Below are positions 23,203-43,836 of a stretch of DNA of 64,000 nt, piece after piece. The notes beneath the pieces were generated by a model. That model was not told where the DNA came from. It worked only from the letters and a program-made list of their open reading frames with translations, and searched no databases. The stretch is taken from the sequence record NC_028780.1; one strand, 5' to 3'. The stretch's first letter is position 1. The number at the start of each line of letters is the position of its first letter. The position numbers were made by a program, and so were the translations under genes. Source of the DNA: Escherichia phage slur07.

Positions 23203-24405
23203 ATGAAAGTATGTATTTTTATGGCTCGAGGTCTTGAAGGTTGTGGTGTAACTAAATTTTCTCTTGAGCAACGTGATTGGTTTATTAAGAATGGTCATGA
23301 AGTAACTTTGGTTTATGCTAAAGATAAATCATTTACTCGTAATTGCGCGCATGATTATAAATCATTTTCAATTCCGGTTTTATTGGCAAAAGAATATGAT
23401 AAAACACTTAAGCTGGTAAATGATTGTGATATTCTAATTATCAATTCAGTTCCTGCTACTTCGGTTGAAGAAGACACTATTAATAACTATAAAAAAATTA
23501 TTGATAACATTAAACCTTCTGTTCGTGTTGTAGTTTATCAACATGACCATTCTTCTCTTTCTTTGCGCCGAAATTTGGGATTAGAAGAAACTGTTCGTCG
23601 AGCTGATGTTATTTTTAGCCATTCTGATAATGGTGATTTTAATAAAGTTCTGATGAAAGAATGGTATCCTGAAACAGTTTCTCTGTTTGATGATATTGAA
23701 GAAGCACCGACAGTATATAACTTTCAGCCTCCTATGGATATTGCGAAGGTTCGGTCAACCTACTGGAAAGATGTTTCTGAAATTAACATGAATATCAACC
23801 GTTGGATTGGTCGTACGACTACATGGAAAGGTTTTTATCAGATGTTTGATTTTCATGAAAAACATCTTAAACCTGCAGGACTAAGTACTATTATGGAAGG
23901 TCTGGAACGTTCTCCAGCGTTCATTCCTATTAAAGAAAAAGGAATTCCATACGAGTATTATCGTCTTCATCAAGTAGACCAAATTAAAATTGCTCCTAAT
24001 TTGCCAACGCAAATTCTTGACCGTTATGTAAATAGCGAAATGCTTGAACGTATGAGTAAATCCGGTTTTGGTTATCAGTTGAGTAAGTTGGATAAAAAAT
24101 ATCTACAACGTTCTTTAGAATATACTCATCTCGAGCTTGGTGCATGTGGAACAATTCCGGTATTTTGGAAATCTACTGGCGAAAATTTAAAATTCCGTGT
24201 TGATAATACTCCTTTGACCTCGCATGATAGCGGTATCATTTGGTTTGATGAAAATGACATGGAATCAACATTTGAACGTATTAAAGAACTGTCATCTGAC
24301 CGAACTCTTTATGACCGCGAACGCGAAAAAGCTTATGAATTTTTGTATCAGCATCAAGATTCAAGCTTCTGCTTTAAAGAACAGTTTGACATTATTACAA
24401 AATAA
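23203..24405 (+). CDS. agt: DNA alpha-glucosyltransferase
   Basis: 400 aa, same length as T4 alpha-gt; N-terminus MKVCIFMARGLEGCGVTKF...; position between 55 and 47. Confidence 0.85.
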   Translation: MKVCIFMARGLEGCGVTKFSLEQRDWFIKNGHEVTLVYAKDKSFTRNCAHDYKSFSIPVLLAKEYDKTLKLVNDCDILIINSVPATSVEEDTINNYKKIIDNIKPSVRVVVYQHDHSSLSLRRNLGLEETVRRADVIFSHSDNGDFNKVLMKEWYPETVSLFDDIEEAPTVYNFQPPMDIAKVRSTYWKDVSEINMNINRWIGRTTTWKGFYQMFDFHEKHLKPAGLSTIMEGLERSPAFIPIKEKGIPYEYYRLHQVDQIKIAPNLPTQILDRYVNSEMLERMSKSGFGYQLSKLDKKYLQRSLEYTHLELGACGTIPVFWKSTGENLKFRVDNTPLTSHDSGIIWFDENDMESTFERIKELSSDRTLYDREREKAYEFLYQHQDSSFCFKEQFDIITK

Positions 24406-26048: not shown

Positions 26049-27733
26049 AGAATTTTAAACTAAATCGAGTTAGGTATCAAAATATAATGTCAGTAGGTGG
26101 AAATCCTATTGACATTCAATTAGATAAGGTTCAAAAAACTCTTATTACTGGACGAAATGGCGGTGGTAAGTCTACTATGCTAGAAGCCATCACATTTGGG
26201 CTTTTTGGCAAGCCATTTCGTGATGTAAAGAAAGGTCAATTAATAAACAGCACAAATAAGAAAGAACTTTTAGTTGAACTGTGGATGGAATATGATGAGA
26301 AAAAGTACTATATCAAAAGAGGACAAAAACCGAACGTTTTCGAAATCACCGTTAACGGTACACGTCTTAATGAATCTGCCAGCAGTAAAGATTTCCAAGC
26401 AGAATTTGAACAGCTTATCGGAATGTCATATGCCAGTTTCAAGCAGATTGTTGTCCTTGGTACAGCAGGGTATACCCCTTTCATGGGTTTGTCGACCCCT
26501 GCACGAAGAAAGCTTGTGGAAGACCTGCTTGAGGTAGGAACATTAGCTGAAATGGATAAGCTTAATAAAGCACTAATACGTGAATTAAATTCACAAAACC
26601 AAGTGCTTGATGTTAAAAAAGATAGTATTATCCAACAAATTAAAATATATAATGATAACGTTGAACGCCAGAAAAAATTAACGGGTGACAACCTTACTCG
26701 TCTGCAAAATATGTACGATGATTTGGCAAAAGAAGCTAGAACGCTAAAATCGGAAATAGAAGAAGCTAATGAAAGATTAGTTAATATTGTTTTGGATGAA
26801 GACCCGACTGATGCATTTAATAAAATCGGTCAAGAAGCAGTTTTAATTAAATCAAAAATTGACTCATATAATAAAGTCATTAATATGTATCACGAAGGTG
26901 GATTATGTCCAACCTGTTTGTCGCAATTAAGTTCCGGTGATAAAGTTGTTTCTAAAATTAAAGATAAAGTTTCTGAATGCACGCATTCGTTTGAACAGCT
27001 TTCAACACATCGTGATAATTTAAAAGTTCTTGTTGATGAATACCGAGATAATATTAAAACCCAACAGTCGTTGGCAAATGATATTCGCAATAAAAAGCAA
27101 TCTCTAATCACGACGGTAGATAAAGCTAAAAAAGTTAAAGCGGCTATAGAAAAAGCATCTTCTGAGTTTATTGACCATGCTGATGAAATAGCACTGCTTC
27201 AAGAAGAACTTGATAAAATTGTTAAGACAAAAACTAATTTAGTAATGGAAAAATACCACCGAGGAATTTTGACTGATATGCTCAAAGATTCTGGTATTAA
27301 AGGTGCTATTATTAAAAAGTACATTCCATTATTTAATAAGCAGATTAACCATTATCTTAAAATAATGGAAGCGGATTATGTGTTTACATTAGATGAAGAA
27401 TTTAATGAGACAATTAAATCCCGTGGTCGTGAAGATTTTAGTTATGCTTCATTCAGTCAAGGTGAAAAAGCACGAATTGATATTGCTCTTTTATTTACTT
27501 GGCGTGATATTGCTGAAAAAGTTTCAGGTGTTAAAATAAGTTGTTTATTTCTTGATGAAGTGTATGACGGTGCATTTGATGCTGAAGGTATTAAAAATGT
27601 AGCTAAAATTTTAGATGGTTTGAAGGATACCAACTTCTTCATAATTTCGCATAAAGACCATGACCCACAAGAATATGGTCAGCATATTCAGATGGAAAAA
27701 GTTGGTAGATTTAGTTTAGCTAAGATTAGCTAA
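26045..27733 (+). CDS. 46: recombination ATPase subunit gp46 (Rad50/SbcC-like)
   Basis: 562 aa; Walker A GRNGGGKST, central coiled coil with CPTC zinc hook, C-terminal LFLDEVYDG. Confidence 0.9.
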   Translation: MKNFKLNRVRYQNIMSVGGNPIDIQLDKVQKTLITGRNGGGKSTMLEAITFGLFGKPFRDVKKGQLINSTNKKELLVELWMEYDEKKYYIKRGQKPNVFEITVNGTRLNESASSKDFQAEFEQLIGMSYASFKQIVVLGTAGYTPFMGLSTPARRKLVEDLLEVGTLAEMDKLNKALIRELNSQNQVLDVKKDSIIQQIKIYNDNVERQKKLTGDNLTRLQNMYDDLAKEARTLKSEIEEANERLVNIVLDEDPTDAFNKIGQEAVLIKSKIDSYNKVINMYHEGGLCPTCLSQLSSGDKVVSKIKDKVSECTHSFEQLSTHRDNLKVLVDEYRDNIKTQQSLANDIRNKKQSLITTVDKAKKVKAAIEKASSEFIDHADEIALLQEELDKIVKTKTNLVMEKYHRGILTDMLKDSGIKGAIIKKYIPLFNKQINHYLKIMEADYVFTLDEEFNETIKSRGREDFSYASFSQGEKARIDIALLFTWRDIAEKVSGVKISCLFLDEVYDGAFDAEGIKNVAKILDGLKDTNFFIISHKDHDPQEYGQHIQMEKVGRFSLAKIS

Positions 27734-28442
27734 GTTTATATTTACAGTTATCATTATGCCACCTTGATAAATTTCCGAAAGTGGTAACTTTACCGCAATG
27801 GACGCAAGTACCAGTCTTTTCAGTTTTCTTGCGTCCATTTGGATTTTTCTTGCAGAAATTTCTATGCGCTGCGATAACGCATTTCTTGCCTATCATTCCG
27901 CAGAATTCGCAGGATGTTTCTTCAAGAACGATTGCTTTAAGCCCGTTTGAGATATTATTTCTGTGTTCTTTAGACATTGGTGGTCTAACTTTAGGATTGG
28001 GGTGATTTGGGCAGTTATCAAAATGCCAACGATTCATATTCCCGCTTAATCCAGACTTACCGCAATGAGGACAAGTTAGTCTTGCTTTATTAGCTACTGC
28101 ATCAGACATTTTCTTTCGTGTCTCCTGGGAGAATTCTTTATTCTTTTCTATTTCCCAGAGTTTACGACGAATCCAACCGAAAGTTTTATTGTTGCGTTTA
28201 GCGTATTTTGTGGAAACTGTCATCATGTTAGCAGCATAGACTAATTTTGGTTCAGAAGGATAAATTTTTACTAAAAGTTGATGAGCTACATAGTGCTCTT
28301 CTGGTGTTAAATCTACTAAGTTTGAGGCATCATCGCTGCCATTTAAACAGCGTGGTATAATGTGATGAGATTCAGTATAGCAATCAAGTTTTCGAGATTT
28401 AGCATTAGAGATTAACTTTTCATAAATTAGTTTATAATTCAT
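27726..28442 (-). mobile_element. free-standing HNH homing endonuclease-like gene (Mob-type), antisense
   Basis: 238 aa minus-strand ORF with SD; HNH motif ESHHIIPR...N...H; three repeated Cys zinc-finger units (CPHCGK...WHFDNC, CEFCG...C, CVHCGK...WHNDNC); convergent with 46. Confidence 0.75.
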
Positions 28443-34912: not shown

Positions 34913-34979
34913 GTTTACAAGACTGTTCCTCTGTGGTACTATACAACTATCAACTAATACGGATTTGGAGAATAAAATG
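34913..34979 (+). repeat. PeSL-like early promoter/leader cassette (copy 4)
   Basis: GTTTAC 34913-34918, TACTAT 34937-34942, leader ...ctatacaactatcaactaatacggatttggagaataaaATG (ATG 34977). Confidence 0.75.
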
Positions 34980-35213
34980 AAAATTGTTTATGGTTGCTTA
35001 GCAGTGTGTTTAGTTGCATTAGCCGCTGTTCCATTTATTGATATTGAAAATGATACTCAGAATGTGATTGAATCTAATACTGTTATTCACATGAATGGTA
35101 AAGTATCAACAAAAATTGATGATAATCTTCATATGAATACTAATGGAACGCTGGGTGTTCAATTAGGTAATACCTGTGTAAGCACTACTGGAGTAATTAC
35201 TACTTGTATTTGA
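34977..35213 (+). CDS. secreted/membrane hypothetical protein
   Basis: 78 aa; N-terminal hydrophobic segment (IVYGCLAVCLVALAAVPFI). Confidence 0.45.
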   Translation: MKIVYGCLAVCLVALAAVPFIDIENDTQNVIESNTVIHMNGKVSTKIDDNLHMNTNGTLGVQLGNTCVSTTGVITTCI

Positions 35214-35223
35214 GGAAATTATT

Positions 35224-35604
35224 ATGAAAATCGCTATTTTGATTATTGCATTAGGTCTTACTGGCTGTGTAGCTCAAGGACCAGTAGTAAATCAGTCTGA
35301 TGCAGGAAAAATTGTAAACTGTTCAAGCAAGTTTTATAATCCTAATGTCAAGTGTTATAAAGAAGCTCCAAAACAGACAGTAGAACAAATGCAGGCGAAT
35401 TTTGACGAAGCTATTCGTCCAGATGAATCTGCTCAAGCATATCGTAATTCGGATGTAATTACACGCGAAGAAAAAATTGAAAACTACTGCGCCGAAATTT
35501 GGGCTAATTGGGCTAATAATTACCAATGGCGTACTGGTAAAAATGCTCCGATGGAGTATGTAGTGAATTCTTATAATTCATGCGTAAAAAATTTGACTAA
35601 GTGA
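35224..35604 (+). CDS. putative lipoprotein
   Basis: 126 aa; lipobox LTGC in MKIAILIIALGLTGCVAQ. Confidence 0.5.
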   Translation: MKIAILIIALGLTGCVAQGPVVNQSDAGKIVNCSSKFYNPNVKCYKEAPKQTVEQMQANFDEAIRPDESAQAYRNSDVITREEKIENYCAEIWANWANNYQWRTGKNAPMEYVVNSYNSCVKNLTK

Positions 35605-35611
35605 GGAAAAG

Positions 35612-35863
35612 ATGGAAACTTTAGTAGCAGGTTCAATTTTTATGGTTTTAGTTTCAGGCGTGTTGGCTATTATTATATACATGCTTCCATGGTTCATTGC
35701 CTTGATGCGTGGGTCAAAATCAACAGTAGGAATCTTTTTCACGTCTTTACTGTTTAACTGGTCAATTATTGGTTGGTTTATTACATTTATTTGGTCAATT
35801 GCGGGTGAAACCAAAAAGTCTGCACAGCCAAATCAGGTAATTATCATCAGAGAGAAGGAATGA
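35612..35863 (+). CDS. imm: superinfection immunity protein (Imm-like)
   Basis: 83 aa (T4 Imm length), two TM helices; position between 43 and 42. Confidence 0.6.
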   Translation: METLVAGSIFMVLVSGVLAIIIYMLPWFIALMRGSKSTVGIFFTSLLFNWSIIGWFITFIWSIAGETKKSAQPNQVIIIREKE

Positions 35864-36009
35864 AAAGCAAAATTATAGCAGCATTGCTTTTAATCTTGAT
35901 GGTTATAATAAGTATATACTATAGTGTAACGGTTCCTCTTATGATTCCAACTATTATTTTAGGTTGGGGTTTATTACTGTTACAAGTTAAATATGAATGT
36001 ATCAATTGA
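35860..36009 (+). CDS. hypothetical small membrane protein
   Basis: 49 aa hydrophobic ORF not in track; ATGA-coupled to imm. Confidence 0.3.
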   Translation: MKSKIIAALLLILMVIISIYYSVTVPLMIPTIILGWGLLLLQVKYECIN

Positions 36010-36016
36010 GGTTTAA

Positions 36017-36757
36017 ATGATTAGTGACTCTATGACAGTTGAAGAAATCCGTCTTCATTTGGGGCTTGCATTAAAGGAAAAAGATTTCGTAGTTGATAAA
36101 ACTGGCGTTAAAACTATTGAAATTATTGGCGCATCATTTGTAGCAGATGAACCGTTTATTTTTGGCGCTCTTAATGATGAATACATTCAGCGTGAACTTG
36201 AATGGTATAAATCTAAGAGCTTGTTCGTTAAAGATATTCCGGGTGAAACACCGAAGATTTGGCAACAAGTAGCATCTTCTAAAGGTGAAATTAACTCGAA
36301 TTATGGTTGGGCTATCTGGTCAGAAGATAACTATGCCCAGTATGATATGTGTTTAGCTGAACTTGGTCAAAATCCTGATTCTCGGCGCGGTATCATGATT
36401 TATACTCGTCCATCTATGCAGTTTGACTACAATAAAGATGGTATGTCAGATTTCATGTGTACGAATACAGTACAATACCTGATTCGTGATAAGAAAGTCA
36501 ATGCAGTAGTAAGCATGCGCTCAAATGACGTGGTCTTCGGATTCCGTAATGATTATGCATGGCAAAAATACGTATTAGATAAATTAGTATCTGATTTGAA
36601 TGCAGGCGATTCAACTCGTCAATATAAAGCAGGTTTTATTATATGGAATGTTGGAAGTCTTCATGTATATTCTCGTCATTTTTATTTGGTTGATCATTGG
36701 TGGAATACTGGCGAAACTCATATTGTGAAAAAAGACTATAAAGGTGAGTGGAAATGA
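36017..36757 (+). CDS. 42: dCMP hydroxymethylase gp42
   Basis: 246 aa (T4 gp42 length); thymidylate-synthase-like fold motifs. Confidence 0.9.
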   Translation: MISDSMTVEEIRLHLGLALKEKDFVVDKTGVKTIEIIGASFVADEPFIFGALNDEYIQRELEWYKSKSLFVKDIPGETPKIWQQVASSKGEINSNYGWAIWSEDNYAQYDMCLAELGQNPDSRRGIMIYTRPSMQFDYNKDGMSDFMCTNTVQYLIRDKKVNAVVSMRSNDVVFGFRNDYAWQKYVLDKLVSDLNAGDSTRQYKAGFIIWNVGSLHVYSRHFYLVDHWWNTGETHIVKKDYKGEWK

Positions 36758-37596
36758 TTCAATTCGTAATTCCAAGTTATCAGCGTGTAGGGGCAGTTTC
36801 TGCCCTTGATATGTTTCCGACTGATTATGAACCGCATATTGTAGTGCGTGAACACGAAGAAAAAGCTTATTATGATGCCTATGGGTCTAGAGCTAAAATT
36901 ATAACTATTCCTGATGATGTAAACGGAATTGCCGGTACTCGTAAAGCAATTACTGATATGTATGCAGGTCAACGAATCTGGATGATTGACGATGATACTA
37001 CTATTCGTATGAGTTCAATGCGAAAAAGAGATGACCGTCGTTGTGTAGATAAAGTCAATCAATTAACCCGTGAACAGTTCTATGAATTGATTCAATACGT
37101 CGAAGATGCCATGGATTGTGGGTATTATCATGGTCATGCTCGTCTACCTATTTTTAAAATTACTTCATCTTGGGGTAATTATCGTGAAAATTCATATGGA
37201 TTCACGAATACATGGTATGACCTTGGAAAACTTACAACAGAACAAATTGGGTATGGAAAAATTGATTTATGCGAAGATATGTATGCATTTCTCAATTTAA
37301 TTAATCAAGGTTATCCGCATTTGGCCTTGTTCAAATATCTGGTTGTATCTGGAAAAGCACAAGCTCCTGGCGGATGTAGTTCAATTCGTAGTAATTCTAA
37401 ACATAATAGAGCGCTTGAACAAATCAATAGAGAGTTTCCAGAGCAAGCTCGTTGGAAAACTTCTAATATTGAAAAACGAAAATCGTTGGGTGAAGAAGAC
37501 GAGCCATTAAAGGTTCTTCGCATGTGTGTTTCTCGTAAAGAAAAATCAGAAGCATTTCATAAGTTTAATGCTATTCATCCAATAGCAGTTGATTAA
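36754..37596 (+). CDS. putative DNA glycosyltransferase (DxD motif), at the T4 beta-gt locus
   Basis: 280 aa from ATG 36754 (ATGA-coupled to 42); DxD motif in IWMIDDDTTIR; not the T4 beta-gt (351 aa) as far as I can recall its sequence. Confidence 0.5.
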   Translation: MIQFVIPSYQRVGAVSALDMFPTDYEPHIVVREHEEKAYYDAYGSRAKIITIPDDVNGIAGTRKAITDMYAGQRIWMIDDDTTIRMSSMRKRDDRRCVDKVNQLTREQFYELIQYVEDAMDCGYYHGHARLPIFKITSSWGNYRENSYGFTNTWYDLGKLTTEQIGYGKIDLCEDMYAFLNLINQGYPHLALFKYLVVSGKAQAPGGCSSIRSNSKHNRALEQINREFPEQARWKTSNIEKRKSLGEEDEPLKVLRMCVSRKEKSEAFHKFNAIHPIAVD

Positions 37597-37673
37597 TGCC
37601 TAAATTTATTGTGTTATAATTACTCTATCTTTAACCAGTGAGGAAAATATAATGATGCCTATGGAAAAAATGA

Positions 37674-38855
37674 ATGTCTATTGCAGATTTAAAATCCCGT
37701 TTGATTAAAGCTTCCACTTCTAAAATGACTGCTGAACTGACTACATCTAAATTCTTTAATGAAAAGGATGTAATCCGTACAAAAATCCCAATGCTTAATA
37801 TTGCTATTTCTGGTGCGATTGATGGCGGTATGCAGTCTGGTTTAACTATTTTCGCAGGGCCTTCTAAACACTTTAAATCAAATATGTCTTTGACTATGGT
37901 TGCGGCATATTTGAACAAATATCCTGACGCGGTTTGTCTATTCTATGATAGCGAATTTGGTATTACTCCAGCTTATTTGCGATCCATGGGAGTTGACCCG
38001 GAACGAGTAATTCATACGCCAATTCAGTCAGTTGAACAGCTGAAAATTGATATGGTGAACCAGCTTGAAGCTATTGAGCGTGGTGAAAAGGTTATTGTAT
38101 TCATCGACTCAATCGGTAATATGGCTTCTAAGAAAGAAACTGAAGATGCCTTGAATGAAAAATCTGTGGCAGATATGACTCGTGCTAAATCACTGAAGTC
38201 ATTATTCCGTATTGTTACTCCTTATTTTAGCATTAAAAATATTCCGTGCGTTGCGGTTAACCATACAATTGAAACCATTGAAATGTTTAGTAAAACCGTG
38301 ATGACAGGTGGTACAGGCGTAATGTATTCGGCTGATACTGTATTCATTATCGGTAAGCGTCAGATTAAAGATGGTTCTGATCTTCAGGGGTATCAATTTG
38401 TTCTAAATGTAGAAAAATCTCGTACCGTTAAAGAAAAAAGTAAATTCTTTATTGATGTTAAATTTGACGGTGGTATCGATCCTTATTCTGGATTGTTAGA
38501 TATGGCTCTAGAATTAGGATTTGTAGTAAAACCTAAAAATGGCTGGTATGCTCGTGAATTTCTTGACGAAGAAACCGGCGAGATGATTCGCGAAGAAAAA
38601 TCTTGGCGTGCAAAAGATACCAACTGCACTACATTCTGGGGTCCTTTATTTAAGCATCAACCATTCCGAGATGCTATTAAACGTGCTTATCAGTTAGGTG
38701 CTATTGATAGTAATGAAATTGTTGAAGCTGAAGTTGATGAATTGATTAACTCAAAGGTTGAAAAATTTAAATCTCCAGAAAGTAAAAGTAAATCAGCAGC
38801 TGATTTAGAAACTGACCTCGAACAGTTAAGTGATATGGAAGAATTTAATGAATAA
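37674..38855 (+). CDS. uvsX: RecA-like recombinase UvsX
   Basis: 393 aa; Walker A GPSKHFKS; N-terminus close to T4 UvsX (..DLKSRLIKASTSK..). Confidence 0.9.
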   Translation: MSIADLKSRLIKASTSKMTAELTTSKFFNEKDVIRTKIPMLNIAISGAIDGGMQSGLTIFAGPSKHFKSNMSLTMVAAYLNKYPDAVCLFYDSEFGITPAYLRSMGVDPERVIHTPIQSVEQLKIDMVNQLEAIERGEKVIVFIDSIGNMASKKETEDALNEKSVADMTRAKSLKSLFRIVTPYFSIKNIPCVAVNHTIETIEMFSKTVMTGGTGVMYSADTVFIIGKRQIKDGSDLQGYQFVLNVEKSRTVKEKSKFFIDVKFDGGIDPYSGLLDMALELGFVVKPKNGWYAREFLDEETGEMIREEKSWRAKDTNCTTFWGPLFKHQPFRDAIKRAYQLGAIDSNEIVEAEVDELINSKVEKFKSPESKSKSAADLETDLEQLSDMEEFNE

Positions 38856-42020: not shown

Positions 42021-43049
42021 ATGTCATCAATACCTTGGATTGATAATGAGTTTGCATACCGTGCATTAGCTCATTTACCTAAATTCACACAAGTAAATAA
42101 TAGTTCAACTTTTAAATTACGGTTTAGATGTCCTGTTTGTGGAGATTCAAAAACCGACCAGAATAAAGCTCGTGGATGGTATTATGGTGATAATAATGAA
42201 GGAAATATTCATTGTTATAACTGTAACTATCATGCACCAATCGGAATATATTTAAAGGAGTTTGAACCTGATTTATATCGTGAGTATATCTTTGAAATAA
42301 GAAAAGAAAAAGGTAAAAGTCGTCCAGTAGAAAAACCTAAAGAACTTCCTAAACAACCTGAGAAGAAAATAATTAAATCTCTTCCGTCATGTGTTAGATT
42401 AGATAAACTGGCGGAAGACCATCCAATTATAAAATATGTAAAAGCTCGTTGTATTCCAAAGGATAAATGGAAATATCTTTGGTTTACAACCGAATGGCCT
42501 AAATTAGTTAATAGTATAGCACCCGGAACATATAAAAAGGAAATACCTGAGCCTCGTCTTGTTATTCCAATTTATAATGCTAATGGAAAAGCTGAGTCTT
42601 TTCAAGGACGTGCATTAAAGAAAGATGCTCCTCAAAAATATATAACCATCAAAGCTTATCCTGAGGCAACAAAAATCTATGGAGTCGAACGAGTTAAAGA
42701 TGGTGATGTATATGTTCTAGAAGGACCTATAGATTCACTTTTTATTGAAAATGGTATAGCTATTACGGGTGGTCAATTAGACCTAGAAGTTGTTCCATTT
42801 AAAGATAGACGTGTGTGGGTTTTAGATAATGAACCTCGTCATCCTGACACTATTAAGCGAATGACTAAATTAGTTGATGCAGGAGAAAGGGTTATGTTTT
42901 GGGATAAATCTCCCTGGAAATCAAAAGATGTTAATGATATGATTAGAAAGGAAGGTGCAACCCCTGAACAAATTATGGAATATATGAAAAATAATATTGC
43001 CCAGGGGTTGATGGCTAAAATGCGGTTATCTAAATATGCTAAGATTTAA
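42021..43049 (+). CDS. 61: DNA primase gp61
   Basis: 342 aa (T4 gp61 length); N-terminal zinc ribbon CPVCG...CYNC; TOPRIM EGPIDSLF. Confidence 0.9.
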   Translation: MSSIPWIDNEFAYRALAHLPKFTQVNNSSTFKLRFRCPVCGDSKTDQNKARGWYYGDNNEGNIHCYNCNYHAPIGIYLKEFEPDLYREYIFEIRKEKGKSRPVEKPKELPKQPEKKIIKSLPSCVRLDKLAEDHPIIKYVKARCIPKDKWKYLWFTTEWPKLVNSIAPGTYKKEIPEPRLVIPIYNANGKAESFQGRALKKDAPQKYITIKAYPEATKIYGVERVKDGDVYVLEGPIDSLFIENGIAITGGQLDLEVVPFKDRRVWVLDNEPRHPDTIKRMTKLVDAGERVMFWDKSPWKSKDVNDMIRKEGATPEQIMEYMKNNIAQGLMAKMRLSKYAKI

Positions 43050-43246
43050 ATTAACCCAACTAAAGCAAATGCTAAATCTACGAATGTATCAAGAGTAACT
43101 ACTGGAATATTAATACCATGTGCAATTGCAACAGGTGATAAAATAAAGTTCCAGAGTAAAATTCCTACCATAGCAGAAATAGTAAAAGCTATACGTTTCT
43201 TATTACCTTTTATGGCATTAACAAGTGCCATTAATTTTTGTACCAT
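43046..43246 (-). CDS. antisense small membrane protein
   Basis: 66 aa minus-strand ORF, strong SD (ggagg 5 nt before ATG), two hydrophobic helices; occupies the 61-56 gap. Confidence 0.45.
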   Translation of the reverse strand: MVQKLMALVNAIKGNKKRIAFTISAMVGILLWNFILSPVAIAHGINIPVVTLDTFVDLAFALVGLI

Positions 43247-43259
43247 ATGTCCTCCTTAT

Positions 43260-43283
43260 TGCTTTATATATTTATTGTATAAT
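43260..43283 (+). promoter_or_regulatory. putative MotA-dependent middle promoter for gene 56
   Basis: TGCTTTA 43260-43266, 11 nt, TATAAT 43278-43283. Confidence 0.55.
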
Positions 43284-43317
43284 TAATCTACTAACCCATG
43301 AATTGAAAGGAAAAATA

Positions 43318-43836
43318 ATGGCTCACTTTAATGAATGTGCTCATTTGATCGAAGGTGTTGATAAAGCAAATCGTGCATATGCTGAGTATATTATGCACAG
43401 TATTGACCCATTGCAGGTTATGCTTGACATGCAGCGGCATTTACAGATTCGTTTGGCTAATGATAAACCAGAAACAAATCGTCATCCTGATTCACTTGAA
43501 ACTGCAGGAGAAGTTCTTGCTTGGCTGCGAAACCAAGACGATTATATCGCAGATGAAACTCGCGAGCTATATACTTCTCTTGGTGGTATGAGTAATGGTG
43601 AAAAAGAAGCTTCTGCCGTATGGAAACCTTGGAAGAAACGTTATTCTGAAATGCAATCCAAGAAAATTCAAGACTTATCTCCTGAAGATCAACTTGAAAT
43701 TAAATTTGAACTGATTGATCAATTTCACTTTTTCATGAATAAATTCATTGCTCTTGGAATGTCAGCTGAAGAAATATTTAAACTTTATTATCTGAAAAAT
43801 GCTGAAAACTTCGCTCGTCAAGACAGAGGCTATTAA
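43318..43836 (+). CDS. 56: dCTP pyrophosphatase gp56 (MazG-like)
   Basis: 172 aa from ATG 43318 (MAHFNECAHLIEG...); track start 43225 rejected because it runs through the promoter. Confidence 0.75.
   Translation: MAHFNECAHLIEGVDKANRAYAEYIMHSIDPLQVMLDMQRHLQIRLANDKPETNRHPDSLETAGEVLAWLRNQDDYIADETRELYTSLGGMSNGEKEASAVWKPWKKRYSEMQSKKIQDLSPEDQLEIKFELIDQFHFFMNKFIALGMSAEEIFKLYYLKNAENFARQDRGY

Follow-up and report, generated by a model that had tools for sequence, protein, structure and literature searches.

Phages T2 and T6 differ in the sugar pattern of their DNA, a difference known for 60 years, with gentiobiosyl-hmC at about 72% in T6. The pathway leading to this modification, as outlined in three reports (PMC6024577, PMC11078745, PMC13216743), proceeds from gp56 and gp42 through a DNA alpha-glucosyltransferase (alpha-gt) to a beta-alpha-glucosyltransferase (ba-gt, also named ggt or TAGT) and ends with gentiobiosyl-hmC, which was reported to be lost from T6 upon deletion of ba-gt (PMC11078745). 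For T2, values of 70% alpha-glucosyl and about 5% gentiobiosyl were reported (PMC6024577). In T4, the slot between gene 42 and uvsX is occupied by a 351-aa beta-glucosyltransferase (b-gt), after which comes segA, a homing endonuclease. PMC13216743 describes alpha-gt combined with a TAGT as the common configuration and the alpha-gt/beta-gt pair of T4 as a rarity, i.e. the ba-gt arrangement is the most common one in Tequatrovirus and T4 is the exception.

The hmC sugar pattern decides which host defences can attack a phage. Gentiobiosyl-hmC was reported to remain uncut in vitro by Brig1, a glycosylase of alpha-glucosyl-hmC, and the sensitivity of T6 to Brig1 to increase without ba-gt (PMC11078745); the glucose on gentiobiosyl-hmC cannot be stripped by BapA (bioRxiv 10.64898/2026.02.25.707755), and the same modification is described as still recognised by GmrSD-type enzymes (PMC13216743). 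The first-pass annotation of the DNA analysed here, which was prepared from the sequence without database searches, states that the HMC sugar pattern governs sensitivity to host restriction systems.

The analysed stretch, hereafter the window, comprises 64,000 nucleotides of Escherichia phage slur07 (NC_028780.1) and contains all the genes of the pathway, i.e. gene 56, gene 42, alpha-gt and ba-gt. The relevant features are as follows:

23203..24405, + strand: alpha-gt, DNA alpha-glucosyltransferase, making the alpha-glucosyl-hmC acceptor for ba-gt (Pfam AGT PF11440, 786 bits)
36017..36757, + strand: gene 42, dCMP hydroxymethylase, making hm-dCMP (Pfam Thymidylat_synt, 56 bits)
36754..37596, + strand: ba-gt / ggt / TAGT, almost certainly UDP-glucose:alpha-glucosyl-hmC-DNA beta-1,6-glucosyltransferase (ORF, PHROG 842, PF20691, T2/Solly identity, GT-A fold)
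36784..36786, + strand: codon of R11 in the N-terminal IPSYQR motif, an arginine invariant throughout the family and replaced by His in laboratory T2
36988..36996, + strand: DxD codons D79-D80-D81, putative site for metal and UDP diphosphate (conservation, model position)
37276..37278, + strand: codon of D175 in the 'CED' motif, putative catalytic base of an inverting GT-A enzyme (invariant in 125 members, helix start)
37674-38855: uvsX, downstream of ba-gt (Pfam T4_UVSX_C, 133 bits)
43318..43836, + strand: gene 56, dCTPase/dUTPase (PHROG 173 at 6e-44, identity to phage EL)

The ba-gt ORF encodes 280 aa, starting with the ATG at 36754 and ending with the TAA stop at 37594-37596. A mechanical ORF list placed the start at a GTG 6 nt upstream of this ATG, but in T2 the gene is likewise annotated from the ATG, as a CDS of 843 bp. 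The stop codon of gene 42 (TGA) overlaps the ATG of ba-gt by 4 bp (ATGA), as read directly from the sequence, and this overlap suggests that both genes are probably co-transcribed and translationally coupled. The window gp42 is identical to that of T2 at 244/246 residues and to that of T4 at 237/246, and the matches of gp42, uvsX and the ORF itself agree with the earlier observation of a 280-aa protein between these two genes, at the position where T4 indeed holds its 351-aa b-gt. Searches of the 64-kb window with tblastn revealed no homologue of T4-type b-gt (best E = 1.3) and none of T4 segA (best E = 1.4). The 77-bp spacer between ba-gt and uvsX (37597-37673), which does not differ between the window, T2 and T6, is likewise devoid of segA.

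Within this spacer the sequence TGCCTAA is followed 11 bp later by TATAAT, a layout resembling that of a T4 MotA-box middle promoter, possibly one serving uvsX. A promoter and terminator scan of positions 35500-38000 gave counts equal to the shuffled expectation; it was a sigma-70 scan, whose scope excludes T4 middle and late promoters. A hairpin of 9 pairs lies at 36788-36808 (+), 35 nt inside the ba-gt coding region (GGGCAG-TTT-CTGCCC core), and its sequence is unchanged in T2 and T6. It may mean nothing, since terminator-like matches were no more frequent than in shuffled sequence.

On either side of imm.1 and imm there are two small conserved ORFs annotated in relatives only as 'phage protein': an 82-aa ORF (34965-35213, +; PHROG 4189) and a hydrophobic 49-aa ORF, whose start overlaps the imm stop (35860-36009, +; PHROG 3610). 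A 238-aa free-standing HNH (mob-type) homing endonuclease is encoded on the minus strand at 27726-28442 (PHROG 655, 7.5e-69; weak Pfam HNH match), in the otherwise all-plus-strand block from gene 46 to the 45.2/rpbA genes. The region 43049-43836 is mosaic. The dam gene, which in T4 and EL stands beside gene 56, is absent from the window; there is none between gene 61 and gene 56, as in phage Solly. The window gp56 is identical at 172/172 residues to the EL protein annotated 'dCTP pyrophosphatase', and only 71% identical to that of Solly.

We conclude that the gene at 36754-37596 is almost certainly a beta-alpha-glucosyltransferase of the T2/T6 type (beta-glucosyl-HMC-alpha-glucosyltransferase, TAGT family). 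A profile search against glycosyltransferase families, which the first-pass annotation had proposed as a check, gave a match to PHROG 842 ('beta-glucosyl-HMC-alpha-glucosyltransferase') covering the whole length of the protein (299 bits, 6e-89) and to Pfam PF20691 (TET-associated glycosyltransferase, TAGT) over profile positions 2-205 of 205, scoring 38.9 bits (gathering score, 27.5). The second proposed check, a comparison with T2 and T6, revealed identity at 278/280 residues to T2 ggt (MH751506) and at 276/279 comparable residues to T6 ggt (MH550421). The T2/T6-style reading put forward on the basis of the locus, the motif and the alpha-gt is thus supported by the T2/T6 identity, both family matches and the GT-A fold described below. 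It is also an enzyme already known, i.e. the T2/T6 one in its usual place and with its usual partner, and the gene is already annotated in RefSeq; the first-pass annotation was correct, and what it had found is not novel.

The ORF is not a chance frame, as the gene occurs at a nucleotide identity of at least 90% in 473 phage records, most of which come from Tequatrovirus phages of Escherichia, Shigella and Yersinia; in many of them it is annotated ba-gt. At the protein level, 248 records share at least 99% identity (tblastn), and the exact matches include the Durham phage Solly and BASEL phages in which the protein is annotated 'beta-alpha-glucosyltransferase'; homologues of about 65% identity occur in phages of other genera. 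A word-indexed homologue search gave only 11 proteins, and the wider family became visible in an exhaustive profile search of 1.84 billion representative proteins, which yielded 2,165 TAGT clusters at 50% identity (E <= 0.001). The members are mostly of 250-300 aa and have in common R11, the DxD, D175 and a PGG-S-R loop. Nearly all of the clusters are uncharacterised, which fits published remarks on solitary TAGT of unknown specificity. A sequence search for a solved structure of the family returned only two matches, both at chance level (E > 1).

Conserved positions were determined from an alignment of 125 diverse TAGT members, whose columns average 20% identity. R11, D80, D175, G186 and G207 are invariant, while I6, P7, R63, D79, D81, L180, G206 and R212 are conserved in at least 90% of the members. 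The motif IWMIDDDTTIR, which had been singled out earlier as a DxD motif, corresponds to residues 75-85, and with D80 invariant and both its neighbours conserved to the above extent, D79-D80-D81 is the conserved acidic motif of the family, so that the DDD is no coincidence. In an AlphaFold2 model (mean pLDDT 72.5 and pTM 0.73, i.e. moderate confidence), the DDD comes immediately after beta-strand 74-79, and D175 lies where helix 174-184 begins; the low-confidence loops of the model are 131-150 and 203-211, the latter spanning the conserved PGG motif. A GT-A fold with the conserved DxD was found for the ba-gt protein, which does not have the two Rossmann domains of the GT-B fold known from T4 b-gt. 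By conservation and position, D79-D81 would bind the UDP diphosphate together with a divalent metal. The candidate general base, by analogy with the 'ED/TED' motifs of GT2 enzymes, is D175, which belongs to an invariant 'ED'.

The following course of the modification can be proposed for slur07. The gp56 enzyme would remove dCTP, leaving only hm-dCTP for incorporation, and by the joint action of gp56 and gp42 hmC would take the place of C in the phage DNA. With UDP-glucose as donor, alpha-gt would then attach an alpha-linked glucose to hmC, and ba-gt, using UDP-alpha-glucose, would add another glucose to the 6-OH of the first one with inversion of the anomer, the predicted product being beta-1,6-glucosyl-alpha-glucosyl-hmC (gentiobiosyl-hmC). 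As a beta linkage is formed from an alpha-configured donor, UDP-alpha-glucose, ba-gt must be an inverting enzyme. This fits a GT2-like GT-A transferase, in which the DxD serves the metal and the diphosphate while the role of the base falls to an acidic residue preceding a helix; ba-gt would be a DxD-dependent, GT2-like inverting transferase of GT-A fold. The partner enzyme is genuine: the alpha-gt, which had been recognised earlier as T4-like, is identical at 365/400 residues (91%) to that of T4 and at 366/400 to that of T6, and at 399/400 to those of both T2 and Solly. Glucose transfer by ba-gt to alpha-glucosyl-hmC DNA, giving gentiobiosyl-hmC DNA, is supported indirectly; our analysis contributes the identity, family, fold, motif conservation, synteny and b-gt absence, and the product chemistry and the deletion phenotype are taken from the literature.

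Three other readings of the locus were considered. The position between gene 42 and uvsX would suit a diverged T4-type beta-glucosyltransferase acting on bare hmC directly in beta linkage, yet homology to T4 b-gt is refuted by both sequence and fold: BLASTP against T4 b-gt aligned 8 residues at E = 2.2, the ba-gt protein has no Pfam beta-gt match, and it adopts GT-A whereas T4 b-gt is a GT-B enzyme (PMC13216743). Moreover, the data of PMC13390438 record Durham phages with the ba-gt gene as being without beta-glucosyl-hmdC, and we regard this reading as virtually excluded. Hardly more credible, and in our opinion very improbable, is a TAGT enzyme with a different donor or acceptor, i.e. one using another sugar or, like the solitary type, acting on a different base modification. 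In favour of this reading, the family is large and for the most part uncharacterised (2,165 representative clusters); many phages are described as having a TAGT as their only such enzyme, with neither alpha-gt nor beta-gt (PMC13216743), and the acceptor may differ in the approximately 65%-identical homologues of other genera (table in PMC6024577). However, the window protein is 100% identical to that of Solly and 99% identical to the T2/T6 enzymes, whose product is gentiobiosyl-hmC, and the required alpha-gt partner is present in the window. The first-pass annotation had left room for 'another sugar', and this reservation is unneeded, as Solly, with the identical protein, contains alpha-gentiobiosyl-hmdC according to the HPLC/MS data of PMC13390438.

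The third reading concerns the extent of the modification, namely that ba-gt contributes little and that, as in T2, most of the glucosylation consists of single alpha-glucose residues and gentiobiosyl-hmC amounts to about 5%. The T2 enzymes, 399/400 (alpha-gt) and 278/280 (ba-gt) identical to those of the window, are nevertheless reported to give the 70%/5% pattern (PMC6024577), and the sugar ratio is unreadable from gene presence alone because such a near-identical pair is reported with so little gentiobiosyl-hmC. Against the T2-like reading, the window agrees with T6 and Solly at R11 and P251, the former is invariant in the family, and Solly, with its identical ba-gt, is about two-thirds gentiobiosylated (PMC13390438). 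A T2-like pattern in slur07 thus seems unlikely, although less so than the two other alternatives. The type of alpha-gt was also considered as a predictor of the ratio and it fails, since T6 (T4-type alpha-gt) and Solly (T2-type) are both highly gentiobiosylated; in EL (T4-type, 7 ba-gt substitutions) gentiobiosylation is intermediate, and in T2 (T2-type) it is low.

The two residues at which the T2 enzyme differs from that of the window are R11H and P251S, and at both the window shares the state of T6 and Solly; the differences from T6 ggt are Y40N, D55G and R106H. Residue 11 is Arg in the window, T6, RB14, Solly and 125/125 aligned TAGT members, and His in laboratory T2, where a one-base change (CGT to CAT) is responsible. 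Among 461 matching records, the exact 111-nt T2 allele was present only in 7 T2 records and SV76, and the allele nearest to it, that of RB14, differs at exactly the R11H base and encodes R11. As R11 is invariant across the family, the low gentiobiosylation of T2 may reflect a hypomorphic enzyme, and since the T2 alpha-gt is identical to that of Solly at 399/400 residues, the approximately 5% value may be caused by R11H, either alone or combined with P251S. We suggest tentatively, and with slightly more doubt than confidence, that the ba-gt allele of the window is ancestral and fully active, that the difference between T2 and T6 stems from R11H, private to the laboratory T2 lineage, possibly together with P251S, and that slur07 and most Tequatrovirus phages are T6-like. 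If this is true, T2 represents a hypomorph and not a separate 'modification type'. This explanation of the T2 phenotype was not found in the accessible text of the publications covered, which are a part of the literature.

The T6 record MH550421 has an amber codon (TAG) at ggt codon 10 and its product is annotated as 261 aa from M20, a protein that would be without the invariant IPSY-R motif. In another T6 record, AP018814, codon 10 is CAG, and over a 111-nt stretch NC_054907 likewise departs from MH550421 by one base (match only). The amber codon may have arisen by mutation in a particular stock or by an error in sequencing.

Returning to the T2/T6-type beta-alpha-glucosyltransferase, the DNA of the Solly group, analysed by HPLC/MS, was reported to contain about 1/3 5-hmdC and about 2/3 alpha-gentiobiosyl-hmdC, with a low background of alpha-glucosyl-hmdC and no beta-glucosyl form (PMC13390438). 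Because the slur07 ba-gt and alpha-gt are identical to those of Solly at 280/280 and 399/400 residues, respectively, our best prediction is a T6-like pattern, i.e. about 1/3 hmC, about 2/3 gentiobiosyl-hmC and little mono-alpha-glucosyl-hmC, the ratio being extrapolated from Solly. Such a pattern is expected to protect the DNA against enzymes that require alpha-glucosyl-hmC. In practical terms, the gene can be annotated with confidence and a T6-like DNA modification predicted, which is of use in the selection of restriction enzymes, of sequencing chemistry or of hosts for phage therapy, and does not constitute new biology.

When set beside known systems, the window protein shares only 6-15% sequence identity with GT2 inverting GT-A enzymes (e.g. 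TarP 6h1j, BcsA 9fmv/4p00 and AvpGT 9jma), from which it is distinguished by its predicted glycosylated DNA acceptor, the lack of a membrane/polymer-synthase domain and a separate Pfam family, PF20691. With T4 b-gt (GT-B, PF09198) it shares the slot, the UDP-glucose donor and the formation of a beta linkage on modified phage DNA; however, the sequences are unrelated, and the acceptor of T4 b-gt is the hydroxymethyl of hmC, whereas that of the window enzyme would be the 6-OH of the alpha-glucose on hmC. The TAGT of Solly (vB_Eco_Solly, OY720021) and of BASEL phages such as FriedrichZschokke and AndreasVesalius is 100% identical to that of the window; in Solly, with its nearly identical alpha-gt, DNA modification was measured directly (PMC13390438), while the flanking genome of the window is about 97% identical to that of Solly and mosaic. 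The closest correspondence is with the T2/T6 ba-gt/ggt (UniProt Q06717 and Q06718, cited in PMC6024577), which has the same length of 280 aa, the same alpha-gt partner, the same gene 42-uvsX locus, the same 4-bp overlap with gene 42 and the same downstream spacer, and relative to the T2 and T6 alleles the window carries the majority one.
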